Sequence record: PQ666540
DNA from: Shigella phage sb2
Reading direction: 5' to 3' (one strand)
DNA: 64,000 bases
Shown: in pieces, positions 22,876 through 27,056 of the stretch
How the letters are laid out: every line of letters begins with the position of its first letter
Position numbering within the stretch: the stretch's first letter is position 1
Made by a program: the position numbers and the translations under genes
The notes under the pieces: model-generated
The model's input: only the letters and a program-made list of their open reading frames with translations
Databases searched by the model: none
What the model was told of the DNA's origin: nothing

Positions 22876-22905
22876 ATTATAACACAACACGAGGGACTTG
22901 TAAAC
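22876..22905 (-). promoter_or_regulatory. T4-type early promoter GTTTAC-N18-TATAAT
   Basis: -35 GTTTAC (plus 22900-22905), -10 TATAAT (plus 22876-22881), then SD and ATG of the 96-aa ORF. Confidence 0.55.
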
Positions 22906-24962
22906 TACATCTTGAACTTTTTAGACATTCCGTTGATGTTAACCAAAGAAGCCAAGATTTGAGAAACTTCGTTTTCCTCTTCTTTTGATTCTTCTACAAG
23001 GAATTGATTAAACCCAGCCATTGGACGAACTTCACCAGTTTCCATTAGATGATCGCCATCATATACCGATTCTTCTAATTGTTCAGAAGGAGGAACGATT
23101 GTGCCTTCGATTAGATACTTATTATAAGCAGTTTCTTTCATCATGTACGTGCTCACTTTATTAATCTTCAGCAAAATTCCACGCGGTAGAATAACTTCAG
23201 CTTCTGATGGAAATCCTGATAAATGACCTGGAACGATAACTTTGATTCGCTCAGCCCCTTTAATTACCATACCTACACTAGTTTCAGCATCTTCATTAGC
23301 ATATGCAGAATGACTACCCATATGCATTAAATCTTCAGCATCAACAGAACCTTCTCCTTCACCAGAAAATACTGCGCCGGAATCATCTAGAGCCATATAG
23401 TTTTTACCATGCTCACCGAAGATATTTGGTTTAAGCGATGTTGATACGAAGTTCTTGAAATAGAACATTTTATTTTCAATATTATGACGTAAAGTTTTAA
23501 AAGTAACTTCTTGACCACGATAAAGCGTAGTTCCCGGAGGAAGAACTGATCCTTTGGCGAATGCAGAATCCAGCGTCTCGATGTGTTTAATAGCTCGTTC
23601 CATATATTCTTCACGGGTAGAATCCGGTTTACCTAAAAGGAACGAGTTCATTTCAACATATGAATCTGCACAATAATCTTCAATTACATCAGACTCAGCC
23701 TGAGTTAATCCTTTTGGAGTTACTTCGGTGCTTGCGTATTCATATGCCTGAGCAGCAGATTCATTAATCAATTTATAAATGCCATTCATGACAAATTGAA
23801 TAATAGCTACCTTTTCGTCTGGTGCGGCTTTAGAACCTTTAACTAAATCATTGATAATTTTCTTAATAACATCAAAGCTATTAGAAATATTAATGTCAGC
23901 GAGATCGCTCAAAATTTTATCGGTTTTATAATCAAAGAATTCTTTATTCTTTAAATATTCTTGAGAACCTTGATGTGTTATATCGCTCTGCAGTCTGATA
24001 GACGGATCACGTAAACGTGCATTGGCCAATGCAATATGATTTCGGAAGCTTTCTAGTTCATAATCGTTAGATTTAAAACGAGAAGCACTTCTCATACCAC
24101 CGATAGCTCCTTTGCCGAAGTTTGAACCAATCTGAATAACGCCAGAGTTCATTGGTCCTTCTGCTTTATATACCGGAACTTTAGATTCAAACTCTTGATA
24201 TTTCTTAGCGGCGAAGCTATCACCCTGAAGTGAAGCATCGACAGTAGAATATTGAGCTTGTGCTGCTAATCGACGACTAATTTTAGTTTTCTGAATAACA
24301 GCTTGATCCGTGCGCTTATCATTTTCTAAAGCAATAGAAGCAGCAACAGCAACAGCTTTAGGAACAGCATTACCTGTTTTAACATCTACATAAACATCAC
24401 CAACCTTTGATTCAACTTTTGTGAATAACTCAGTTGAAATAGGAGGTACACCTGGAATGTCTTCTAAATTGGCATTTTTACGGTAAACCATAATATATGC
24501 ATACTTTTTATCGTAATCCCAGATTTCCTTTAAAAGAACATATCGACCTGCTCCTTTAGTACGTACTAAACGGTCAGCAATAACTTGCATTTGACGAGCT
24601 GCGCCATTTGTTTTACTTTTTAGTACGCGGAATAGGCATGCATCAATTTTATACTGTTTCATTGTTTGAAGAGCAGTATCAAAAACAGCATTAATGACAC
24701 CAATTGGATTTCCACCCAAGTTTTTAAGTTTAACTAATGATAGTTTCTCATTAACACCTATCATTACGATATGCATCATTTTATCGCCTGGCTTAACGTT
24801 TTTATTTGTATCACCGCCAGAGGTGTATGTACAAAATCTAAATCCAGGAAGCACGCTTTCTTCACCGGCTTGAATAGCAAAAATTTGAGGTATTTTATGC
24901 TTAGGATTTAATTTAACAACCGGCGCCGAAGCGCCGTCAAATAATTCTGTAATAAGTTCCAT
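22905..24962 (-). CDS. Alt-family ADP-ribosyltransferase paralogue (685 aa)
   Basis: N-terminus MELITELFD... about 60% identical to adjacent Alt; retains R (LYRGQ), STS (FVSTSL) and ExE (EAEVILPRG) ART motifs. Confidence 0.85.
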   Translation of the reverse strand: MELITELFDGASAPVVKLNPKHKIPQIFAIQAGEESVLPGFRFCTYTSGGDTNKNVKPGDKMMHIVMIGVNEKLSLVKLKNLGGNPIGVINAVFDTALQTMKQYKIDACLFRVLKSKTNGAARQMQVIADRLVRTKGAGRYVLLKEIWDYDKKYAYIMVYRKNANLEDIPGVPPISTELFTKVESKVGDVYVDVKTGNAVPKAVAVAASIALENDKRTDQAVIQKTKISRRLAAQAQYSTVDASLQGDSFAAKKYQEFESKVPVYKAEGPMNSGVIQIGSNFGKGAIGGMRSASRFKSNDYELESFRNHIALANARLRDPSIRLQSDITHQGSQEYLKNKEFFDYKTDKILSDLADINISNSFDVIKKIINDLVKGSKAAPDEKVAIIQFVMNGIYKLINESAAQAYEYASTEVTPKGLTQAESDVIEDYCADSYVEMNSFLLGKPDSTREEYMERAIKHIETLDSAFAKGSVLPPGTTLYRGQEVTFKTLRHNIENKMFYFKNFVSTSLKPNIFGEHGKNYMALDDSGAVFSGEGEGSVDAEDLMHMGSHSAYANEDAETSVGMVIKGAERIKVIVPGHLSGFPSEAEVILPRGILLKINKVSTYMMKETAYNKYLIEGTIVPPSEQLEESVYDGDHLMETGEVRPMAGFNQFLVEESKEEENEVSQILASLVNINGMSKKFKM

Positions 24963-24965
24963 GAT

Positions 24966-27020
24966 TTATCCTTGAACGAACTTGTAAGGCATGTTTGTAA
25001 TATCTATGCAAGACGCAATAATTCCAATAGATGATTCGACTTTCTGTTTAACATTTGATGAAACAAATGATGCAAAATCAACTCTGTCTTCTATTTCAAT
25101 ATCACCTGTCATTGCAACTACTTCACCAGTTTCCATTAGACGGTCACCGTCATAAATTACTGATTCGGTGAGTTCTTCCGTAGTCATAACTTCAGCTTGA
25201 ATAAGCTTGTTGTTAGTTTTAGCTGTTCCATCATTGTAAGATGCATCGGTTATTTTATTAACTTTGACCATTAATCCACGTGGTAAAATGACTTCCATTT
25301 CATTTGAAGGCGCTAAACTTCCACCTGGTAAAACAACGTTGACTTTATCAGCCCCAGTAATAACCCATCCAATTCCAACTAAATTATCGCTAGAATTAAC
25401 AAGTCCTTCATCGTTTTTATCGATAGAAATGTTTAGACGCTTTTCGTCTGGTAAAACACCCACAGCTGAATCAGTCATCCAAGTACCAAAAATGTTTGGA
25501 TATAATGATGTTGATACAAAATTTCTAAAATAAAAAACTCGATTTTTTACCAATGCTTCATATATTGAAGGTAACATTCGCTGTGAACGATATAAAGTAA
25601 TACCTTTTGGCAGTCGATCACCATTTTTAAAGGCTGAATCTAAATTATCGATGGCTTGTTCTATTTCTGGTGCTGTTAAAATACTTGTACGCTCATCTGG
25701 ATTATATAATCCCAAAAGAGCATTATTCATGTCTACATATCCTGAACCTACGTATTCACGAATTCCGCGTTTTTGTGCCGGTGTGTATTTAGATGAATCT
25801 TTATTTTCGACTATAGAATGCAATGACCATCCAACGGTAAGAGCATATCCACGTAATTCTCTTCGAATAATCTTTGTTTTTATTGCATTCCAAGAATTTT
25901 GCACTAACTCATTCGCAGCATCTTGATTTAAATGCGAATGCTTGTTAATATTTCTTTCTAACCAAGCACCTTTATATTTTTCTAAAGTATCATCAACTAT
26001 AGAAGCAATAGTTTCTAAAGTTTTTATTGAAGTAATAGATTCTTTTCGTAATCTTTCTAAAGCTTTATTTTTTATTTCTGCATTAACATCAGATTCTTTA
26101 TCTTCAGGAATTATAGAAGCTTCTCTGAATGCCATTCCAGCTGTAACACTATTAAGAGCATTCTCTAATGCAAATCCTGAAGTAGAAATAACAGTTAATT
26201 CGTTAGCATCAGAAATTAAAGGCGCGTCAGCGGGTTTATTTAATTCTGCTGCTGAAGCCTCAAATTTTTGAAACATTGGTCTTTCAAATCTAGAAGATTC
26301 CAATGACTGACTTTGCGCAATTGCTCTACGGGAAATTTTAACTTTAACTATTACAGCTTGATCAGAACGTTTATCGTTTTCTTGCGCAATAGATGCTGCA
26401 ATTGCCTCATTTTTAGTTACTTGAGCTCCAGTATCTTTATTGATATAAACATCACCGACCTTCGATTCAACTTTAGTAAAGAGCTCGGTACTAATTTCAG
26501 GAACTCCTGGAATGTCTTCTAATGATACATTTTTGCGATGTATAAGAATATATGCATACTTTTTATCGTAATCCCAGAGTTCCTTAAGAAGGACGTATCT
26601 GCCACCTGAACGACTGCGGATAAGTCTATCAGCAATAAGTTGAATTTGACGAGCTTGACCAGCAGTTTTAGACTTAAGAATACGGAGCATACAGGCATCA
26701 ATTTTATACTGACGCATCGTCTGCATCGCAACAGTAAAAACTGAATTGATGTAATTAATTGGGCTTGGACCGAGACCTTTTAATTTAGCAATTGAGCCTT
26801 TAGCAGTTAATGTAAAAGGAACAATATGCATCATTTTATCGCCCATCTTTAAATCGCGATTAGTATCACCTCCAGATGTATAGGTACATAAACGAAAGCC
26901 TGGCTGTTCAATTGCGTCATCAACATGAACTGAAAAAATTTGTGGTATTTTCTTCTTTGGATTTAAGTTTGTAATCGGAAGAGTAGTATCTTCGTCAAAT
27001 AATTCTGTAATGAGTTCCAT
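24966..27020 (-). CDS. alt: Alt, RNA polymerase ADP-ribosyltransferase (packaged internal head protein)
   Basis: About 684 aa, MELITELFDEDTTLPITNL...; ART motifs LYRSQ, FVSTSLYPN, EMEVILPRG; position next to gene 30. Confidence 0.9.
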   Translation of the reverse strand: MELITELFDEDTTLPITNLNPKKKIPQIFSVHVDDAIEQPGFRLCTYTSGGDTNRDLKMGDKMMHIVPFTLTAKGSIAKLKGLGPSPINYINSVFTVAMQTMRQYKIDACMLRILKSKTAGQARQIQLIADRLIRSRSGGRYVLLKELWDYDKKYAYILIHRKNVSLEDIPGVPEISTELFTKVESKVGDVYINKDTGAQVTKNEAIAASIAQENDKRSDQAVIVKVKISRRAIAQSQSLESSRFERPMFQKFEASAAELNKPADAPLISDANELTVISTSGFALENALNSVTAGMAFREASIIPEDKESDVNAEIKNKALERLRKESITSIKTLETIASIVDDTLEKYKGAWLERNINKHSHLNQDAANELVQNSWNAIKTKIIRRELRGYALTVGWSLHSIVENKDSSKYTPAQKRGIREYVGSGYVDMNNALLGLYNPDERTSILTAPEIEQAIDNLDSAFKNGDRLPKGITLYRSQRMLPSIYEALVKNRVFYFRNFVSTSLYPNIFGTWMTDSAVGVLPDEKRLNISIDKNDEGLVNSSDNLVGIGWVITGADKVNVVLPGGSLAPSNEMEVILPRGLMVKVNKITDASYNDGTAKTNNKLIQAEVMTTEELTESVIYDGDRLMETGEVVAMTGDIEIEDRVDFASFVSSNVKQKVESSIGIIASCIDITNMPYKFVQG

Positions 27021-27056
27021 CATATCCTCTCTAGTGTTTATTCTATTTATAAAATT

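Follow-up and report, generated by a model that had tools for sequence, protein, structure and literature searches.

A second full-length Alt-family ADP-ribosyltransferase gene beside alt in Shigella phage sb2, intact in most related phages, disrupted in T4 and predicted to encode a head-packaged enzyme

The 64,000-nucleotide stretch of Shigella phage sb2 analysed here (record PQ666540; hereafter the window) belongs to a T4-like Tequatrovirus phage; its positions 22400-27400 match Shigella phage pSs-1 at 98.7% and 529 phage records overall. At the locus of interest, genes 29, 48 and 54 on the plus strand are followed on the minus strand by alt.-3, alt2, alt, alt.1 and the DNA ligase gene 30, with the neighbouring alt and alt2 both encoding full-length members of the Alt family of ADP-ribosyltransferases. 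A preliminary description of this DNA had reported them as adjacent open reading frames (ORFs) of 685 amino acids, and this holds for both frames in the ORF list (24966..27023 and 22905..24962, 3 nt apart), but the upstream gene itself is probably one codon shorter. The upstream frame opens with MMELITE. Of its two ATGs, the second (27020) is better spaced from a Shine-Dalgarno sequence (GAGAGG, 5 nt away) and coincides with the start of T4 Alt, so that alt was probably correctly delimited as 684 codons from that position. The extra in-frame ATG at 27021-27023 is the start used in the annotations of phages Bas35 and Bas44 (MMELITE). Plus-strand ORFs of 69-109 amino acids within alt and alt2 were set aside as mechanical antisense frames and are annotated in no related record.

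Comparison of the two products placed both within the Alt family, as the preliminary description had proposed. They align by BLASTP with E = 2e-157 and 41% identity overall, both exceed the 23.4-bit cut-off of Pfam PF03496 (ADPrib_exo_Tox; Alt 117.9 bits, Alt2 72.5 bits), and both match phrog_802, 'Alt-like RNA polymerase ADP-ribosyltransferase', from end to end (E = 1.5e-262 for Alt), with no NCBIfam model matching either. The upstream product and T4 Alt (NP_049811) are 96% identical overall and 92-99% per segment, and the upstream gene retains the T4 position between alt.1/gene 30 and gene 54, in agreement with its earlier identification as the canonical Alt. Alt2 does not qualify as an orthologue of canonical Alt, having 41-45% overall identity to the T4 protein.

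The R / S-T-S / E-x-E signature is present in Alt as LYR478S, S503-T-S505 and E574-M-E576, and in Alt2 as LYR482G, S507-T-S509 and E587-A-E589. The arginine, both serines and both glutamates (R482, S507, S509, E587 and E589 in Alt2) did not vary in either of two alignments, one of 21 family sequences and one of 15 sequences from six genera, and VIP2 R349 and E426/E428 align with Alt2 R482 and E587/E589. All motifs quoted in the preliminary description are therefore present, and the loss of catalytic residues on alignment against which it had cautioned was not seen; the match to the catalytic motif is far beyond chance. The E-x-E form, unlike Q-x-E, predicts arginine specificity within the R-S-E clade.

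An AlphaFold2 model of Alt2 built from 21 sequences had a predicted local distance difference test score (pLDDT) of 72.6 and a predicted template modelling score of 0.60, with residues 480-622 forming the catalytic core. In Foldseek searches with this model, the best match to the catalytic part was Vis (4xzj) (E = 3.7e-7, TM-score relative to the target of 0.61), as well as C3bot, CDTa, Certhrax and VIP2. A sequence search of the PDB with full-length Alt2 gave no match, and the catalytic part alone gave only weak matches to VIP2, CDTa and Vis. Pfam searches with the N-terminal and middle segments likewise gave none, save a sub-threshold CesA match taken as chance. Homologues in the Alt family carry a precomputed match to Pfam PF26846 beside PF03496.

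The similarity between Alt and Alt2 is unevenly distributed along the proteins. In a codon-aware comparison using Alt numbering, amino acid identity is 67% over residues 1-238 and 25% over the middle region at 239-410 (12-20% in multi-sequence alignments), then 36-37% over the catalytic domain at 411-620 and 43% over the C-terminal tail, a pattern anticipated by the earlier estimate of about 60% identity over the first ~230 residues followed by strong divergence in the middle. Synonymous divergence (dS) between the two genes is at least 1.07 in every segment and hence saturated, indicating that the duplication is old. The ratio of non-synonymous to synonymous divergence (dN/dS) between the N-terminal domains is 0.24, and on these rates their likeness is kept by selection; recent gene conversion as the source of this similarity was ruled out, as dS is also saturated there (1.07-1.45). 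An Alt2-type cassette is also found in Dhakavirus WG01, in the gene-54-proximal position and with 100% bootstrap.

Further differences lie around the active site. In the ADP-ribosylating turn-turn (ARTT) loop preceding the E-x-E motif, Alt2 has an aromatic residue (GFPSEAE), like VIP2 (GFASEKE), whereas the corresponding loops of T4-type Alt (LAPSNEME), T2-type Alt (LGIATEAE) and Mosigvirus Alt (NHPNEQE) are without one. The loop following the STS motif is longer in Alt2 than in Alt, and is acidic and poorly modelled. In C3- and iota-type toxins, the ARTT loop governs substrate recognition.

The domain plan of Alt2, together with the other features of the locus, is set out in the table below. 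The N-terminal domain is proposed to serve in delivery and packaging, and its fold recurs in proteins of other phages that are annotated with unrelated domains (zeta-toxin, deaminase, ParB). The middle region has only three relatives among 1.84 billion representative proteins: a fragment of 118 aa and two proteins similar in length to members of the Alt family.

Table. Positions of the genes, predicted protein segments, expression signals and deletion repeats at the alt locus (window coordinates).
Feature	Position	Strand	Basis
alt, T4-type Alt ADP-ribosyltransferase, probably 684 aa	24966..27020	-	T4 Alt identity 96%, PF03496, phrog_802
alt2, second full-length Alt-family ADP-ribosyltransferase, 685 aa	22905..24962	-	ORF list, BLASTP, PF03496, phrog_802
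Exchangeable effector cassette of alt, ~aa 239-606, T4-type allele in the window	25203..26306	-	Nucleotide comparison with T2
Alt2 N-terminal propeptide MELITE, predicted gp21 site I-T-E/L, identical to T4 Alt	24945..24962	-	Sequence; residues 1-11 low-confidence
Alt2 N-terminal alpha/beta domain, aa 7-238, isoelectric point 9.7	24249..24944	-	67% identity to Alt; AlphaFold2 pLDDT 84.5; clusters by genus
Alt2 middle helical region, aa 239-420, paralogue-type-specific	23703..24248	-	12-25% identity to Alt; all-helical model; no Pfam match
Alt2 ADP-ribosyltransferase domain, aa 421-631	23070..23702	-	PF03496 72.5 bits; VIP2 alignment; Foldseek
Alt2 catalytic R482	23517-23519	-	PF03496, VIP2 alignment
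Alt2 catalytic S507-T-S509	23436-23444	-	PF03496, VIP2 alignment
Alt2 catalytic E587-A-E589	23196-23204	-	PF03496, VIP2 alignment
Alt2 predicted acidic C-terminal propeptide, aa 632-685, isoelectric point 4.6, after candidate gp21 site L629-E-E631/S	22908..23069	-	Aligns with T4 Alt LTE-619/S
T4-type late promoter TATAAATA	27044..27051	-	Sole exact copy on the minus strand, 22500-27500
GC-rich hairpin AAAGGCCTTCGGGCCTTT overlapping the stop codon of alt.1; likely terminator, immediately ahead of the late promoter	27057..27074	-	Read from sequence
Early-type sigma-70 promoter for alt.-3 (TTTACA, 17 nt, TATAAT, with TG)	22876..22904	-	11/12 consensus matches, best site in region
Upstream 9-bp direct repeat CTAAAAAGT, left end of T4 deletion	24615..24623	-	DNA alignment
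Downstream 9-bp direct repeat CTAAAAAGT, right end of T4 deletion	22916..22924	-	DNA alignment

In T4, Alt is made late and each head contains about 40 copies; the gp21 protease cuts the protein at ITE-6 and LTE-619 to leave a 68.2 kDa product (PMC5694885, PMC9026906). Inspection for gp21 processing sites, as the preliminary description had suggested, found candidate motifs at both ends of both window proteins: ITE-6 and LTE-619 in Alt, and in Alt2 an ITE-6 within an identical start (MELITE followed by LF) and LEE-631 at the aligned C-terminal position. Related putative motifs occur in all 15 Alt-family members compared. The candidate sites of Alt2 fall within low-confidence stretches that are probably disordered, namely residues 1-11 in both models and residues 629-662, where pLDDT is below 50. 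After trimming, Alt is predicted to have a mass of 68.3 kDa (published value 68.2) and Alt2 one of 69.0 kDa, and both proteins have the same charge layout, basic in the N-terminal domain (isoelectric point 9.5-9.7) and acidic in the catalytic domain and C-terminal propeptide.

The expression signals are consistent with cotranscription of the two genes late in infection. The only exact late promoter is that upstream of alt, and sites with one mismatch occur at chance frequency in the window, those inside alt being limited to 25786-25793 and 26438-26445. The AGGA Shine-Dalgarno sequence of alt2 overlaps the end of alt, with alt2 starting 3 nt past the alt stop codon. An internal late promoter for alt2 was rejected, there being no exact site, only one-mismatch sites at chance level and none of these within ~800 nt upstream. 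The hairpin AAAGGCCTTCGGGCCTTT did not satisfy the T-run rule in the terminator scan. At the other end, the early-type promoter of alt.-3 directly follows the alt2 stop codon and thereby delimits the late alt-alt2 unit. Taken together, the gp21 motifs, the likeness in mass and charge and the promoter layout point to a late alt-alt2 operon whose two products would be packaged, trimmed and injected together.

In T4 there is no intact alt2. The T4 proteins Alt.-1 (NP_049810) and Alt.-2 (NP_049809), which the T4 GenBank note attributes to an old duplication involving the beginning of alt, can be aligned to residues 1-116 of Alt2 and not to Alt. Their DNA is 97% identical to the first 116 codons of alt2, T4 locus 5499-5105 matching window 25010-24615 at that level. 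The PHROG families of these two proteins, phrog_23015 and phrog_15247, likewise match Alt2 (8.7e-40 and 3.2e-38) more strongly than Alt (1e-21 and 2e-19). The T4 match to the window then jumps from 24615 to 22924-22509, and the two matches share the 9 nt CTAAAAAGT, found at T4 locus position 5105-5113; T4 thus lost 1,699 bp of alt2 between 9-bp direct repeats. Within the remnant, a 1-nt deletion in an A-run has produced the split into alt.-1 and alt.-2. The preliminary description had left undecided whether T4 carries the same paralogue, and this is now settled: T4 carries a stump only. The deletion junction occurs in 91 records, including T4 strains and natural isolates such as RB55, RB59, vB_EcoM_112, HY03, SG1 and ACG-C40, and its presence in natural isolates indicates a lineage trait rather than a laboratory artefact.

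The intact gene is far more common. The 1,346 bp specific to alt2 matched 401 phage records at 80% coverage or more, every match being at least 90% identical, and a tblastn search with Alt2 found 402 records at 80% protein identity or more, the next-best lying below 60%; these counts are of records and not of independent isolates, and the ORFs were not checked one by one. The tandem alt/alt2 pair is present in roughly four in five of the ~500 Tequatrovirus records searched, T2 included. Alt2 orthologues, among them those of Bas35, Bas37, Bas38, Bas44, RB32, T2, pSs-1 and hundreds more, are 93-100% identical per segment and keep the tandem layout. The second gene has already been labelled 'Alt-like RNA polymerase ADP-ribosyltransferase' (RefSeq), 'alt.-2' (RB32) and 'ADP-ribosyltransferase Alt2' (the BASEL phages Bas35, Bas37, Bas38 and Bas44), and duplications of alt in T4, RB49 and 44RR were listed by Nolan et al. 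2006 (PMC1524935). A literature search combining Alt2, ADP-ribosyltransferase and phage found no study of the Alt2 protein. The tandem pair is thus the majority and already annotated state of T-even phages rather than a new arrangement, with T4 as the degenerate case, which lowers the novelty of the preliminary description and not its correctness.

Variation in alt itself follows a modular pattern. At least two alt alleles are present within Tequatrovirus, a T4-type (the window, T4, pSs-1 and Bas35) and a T2-type (T2, Bas38 and Bas44), whose products are at least 99% identical in the N-terminal domain and 94-98% in the C-terminal tail but only 34% over the middle region and 68% over the catalytic domain. 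At the nucleotide level, alt of the window and that of T2 are 27-78% identical within the cassette and at least 92% identical elsewhere in the gene, the change being abrupt near codons 241 and 606. A full match to the T4-type cassette was found in only 174 of 516 records. Each of the two alleles seems to occur both with Alt2 and with its deletion, making four combinations in all. Beyond the genus, tandem Alt arrays at the alt locus are found in Dhakavirus, with three copies in WG01 and two in VR5, and in Aeromonas phage 44RR (Biquartavirus), with two full copies and one shorter; Krischvirus JSE has alt and a short ADP-ribosyltransferase gene, and Mosigvirus and Jiaodavirus have a single copy.

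Neighbour-joining trees of the two parts of the protein gave different groupings. The N-terminal domain grouped by genus, with all Tequatrovirus Alt and Alt2 sequences together at 100% bootstrap, whereas the middle-plus-catalytic part grouped across genera by effector type, pairing Alt2 with WG01 ORF199, T4-type Alt with VR5 gp210 and T2-type Alt with WG01 ORF200 (100% each). The catalytic domains of T4-type Alt and VR5 gp210 are 81% identical. The point at which the trees switch, near residue 238, coincides with the low-confidence linker at residues 224-239 of the Alt2 model. On these comparisons, the Alt family looks like a genus-adapted delivery domain joined to exchangeable effector cassettes.

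Against its orthologues in pSs-1, Bas35, Bas44, Bas38 and T2, Alt2 had a dN/dS of 0.03-0.06 overall, 0.02-0.03 in the catalytic domain and 0.07-0.16 in the middle; on these rates, Alt2 is under strong purifying selection. The intact ORF and a dN/dS of ~0.05 rule out a decaying copy. Transposon data are available for Bas37 from a HIDEN-SEQ preprint (10.1101/2025.11.20.689424), in which Alt2 (bas37_0032) had insertions at 116 of 164 TA sites (saturation 0.71, mean count 44.5) and was classed as 'Intermediate', compared with 164 of 179 TA sites for Alt (bas37_0033; saturation 0.92, mean count 203.6), classed as 'Non-essential'. Insertions in Bas37 alt2 were also under-represented relative to both small neighbouring genes. 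The lower tolerance of Alt2 to insertion hints at non-redundancy. The same preprint reports that evasion of the type I Mokosh system is aided by T4 Alt and not by Bas37 Alt, indicating that allelic differences within the Alt family have functional consequences.

Of the flanking genes, alt.-3 (22554-22844, minus strand) matches Pfam DUF5498 and phrog_1739, and C-terminal extensions of T4 Alt.-3 allow phage escape from CmdTAC defence (PMC11618068). The 62-aa product of alt.1 (27073-27261) matches Pfam PF24647, 'Phage blade protein'. A perfect hairpin with a 9-bp stem lies at 22528-22549, between the converging genes 54 and alt.-3, with a terminator score on both strands. An Rfam scan of the whole window and a tRNA scan gave no matches.

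The reading favoured by these observations, which is probable although well short of certain, is that Alt2, like Alt, is an arginine ADP-ribosyltransferase packaged in the head and injected, with targets of its own, and is encoded in what is a normal two-gene T-even alt locus. In the proposed mechanism, late transcription of both alt and alt2 would start at the one TATAAATA promoter, which lies upstream of alt, and both products would be placed in the prohead core, where gp21 would trim both ends of each (in Alt2, a 6-residue N-terminal and an acidic C-terminal propeptide). The two proteins would then be ejected with the DNA into the host, where each enzyme would use nicotinamide adenine dinucleotide (NAD+) to ADP-ribosylate arginines, each on its own set of host proteins. 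The suggestion in the preliminary description that the second copy has different substrates and is packaged and injected fits the divergent middle and catalytic module, the ARTT loop, the gp21 sites, the late operon and the purifying selection. It is put forward as a set of predictions: that Alt2 is packaged, injected and enzymatically active, and that its targets differ from those of Alt. Several points weigh against this reading. Literature searches returned no direct evidence of Alt2 in virions, or of its being cleaved, injected or enzymatically active, and T4 and 90 other records are without Alt2, which makes it dispensable on at least some hosts. The full-length model is only moderate (pLDDT 72.6, from 21 sequences), the argument for specificity from the ARTT loop works by analogy to C3- and iota-type toxins, late promoters deviating from TATAAATA may exist, and the Bas37 transposon signal, on which the preprint offers no discussion, is modest and may reflect polar or truncation effects.

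An unlikely alternative is that Alt2 is a redundant duplicate whose host substrates are those of Alt, RNA polymerase alpha among them, and which adds dosage or back-up only. The two copies do have family, architecture, catalytic motifs and operon in common, T4 grows without Alt2, and T4 Alt is described as promiscuous in vitro in a paper citing Depping et al. 2005. However, identity in the middle and catalytic modules is only 12-37%, the ARTT loops differ, and Alt and Alt2 differ in their tolerance of transposons in Bas37; moreover, each type is separately conserved across genera under strong purifying selection, where a plain back-up would be expected to decay or homogenise. Equally unlikely is a late intracellular role, with an active but unpackaged Alt2 acting on host or phage proteins in the producing cell. 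This would be compatible with a sequence that indicates late expression only and with a literature search that turned up no virion proteomics of Alt2, but would not account for the retention by Alt2 of the exact N-terminal propeptide and of an aligned C-terminal gp21 site, both predicted to be disordered, nor for a conserved N-terminal domain that tracks genus, as expected of a part fitting its own prohead.

It is far less probable still that Alt2 is a pseudo-enzyme, a structural internal head protein that has kept the fold and lost the activity. The predicted activity of Alt2 does come from its sequence, and the long, acidic loop after the STS motif is poorly modelled, but the R / S-T-S / E-x-E residues are all invariant and the catalytic domain, at the dN/dS given above, is the most constrained part of the protein.

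The closest comparison is with T4 Alt (gpAlt), of which alt in the window encodes the orthologue, with the same late promoter context and the same gp21 sites. Alt2 shares its architecture, propeptide and R-S-E site, and differs in the middle region, the catalytic domain, the ARTT loop and the longer acidic loop after the STS motif. The activities of T4 Alt against which Alt2 may be compared are modification of RNA polymerase alpha, inhibition of MazF and evasion of Mokosh. The T4 genes alt.-1 and alt.-2 are the same gene as alt2, broken in T4 and intact in the window, and the genes annotated elsewhere as Alt2, alt.-2 or a second Alt-like gene are direct orthologues, of which the window provides one more instance. 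The R-S-E toxins VIP2, iota Ia, CDTa, C3 and Vis have the same catalytic fold and R / S-T-S / E-x-E residues as Alt2 at 14-20% identity, but are delivered by secretion or binary-toxin pores rather than by a phage head, and their non-catalytic parts are unrelated to Alt2. The polymorphic toxins and MuF-fused phage head effectors described by Iyer, Aravind and colleagues are alike in combining a conserved delivery domain with a swappable effector; the N-terminal domain of Alt is not MuF, and the likeness is in the way of working rather than in membership.

In the textbook account of T-even takeover, which derives from T4, Alt is the single ADP-ribosyltransferase to be injected, and ModA and ModB come after it. 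It is quite possible, if slightly less probable than its opposite, that most T-even phages inject two such enzymes, in which case Alt2 would bring the ADP-ribosyltransferases of T-even phages to four, the others being Alt, ModA and ModB. On this reading Alt2 would act on host targets of its own, might also counter host defences and would have been overlooked as T4 deleted alt2, and the Alt family would be one of polymorphic effectors. T4 is among the minority of its relatives that lost alt2, while in T2 and many therapeutic candidates Alt2 has been retained under strong selection. The targets of Alt2, once identified, would fill a gap in early phage-host biology, and a counter-defence role could emerge, as for T4 Alt against type I Mokosh. 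The modular layout of the family further suggests a practical route by which chosen effector domains may be loaded into T-even heads.

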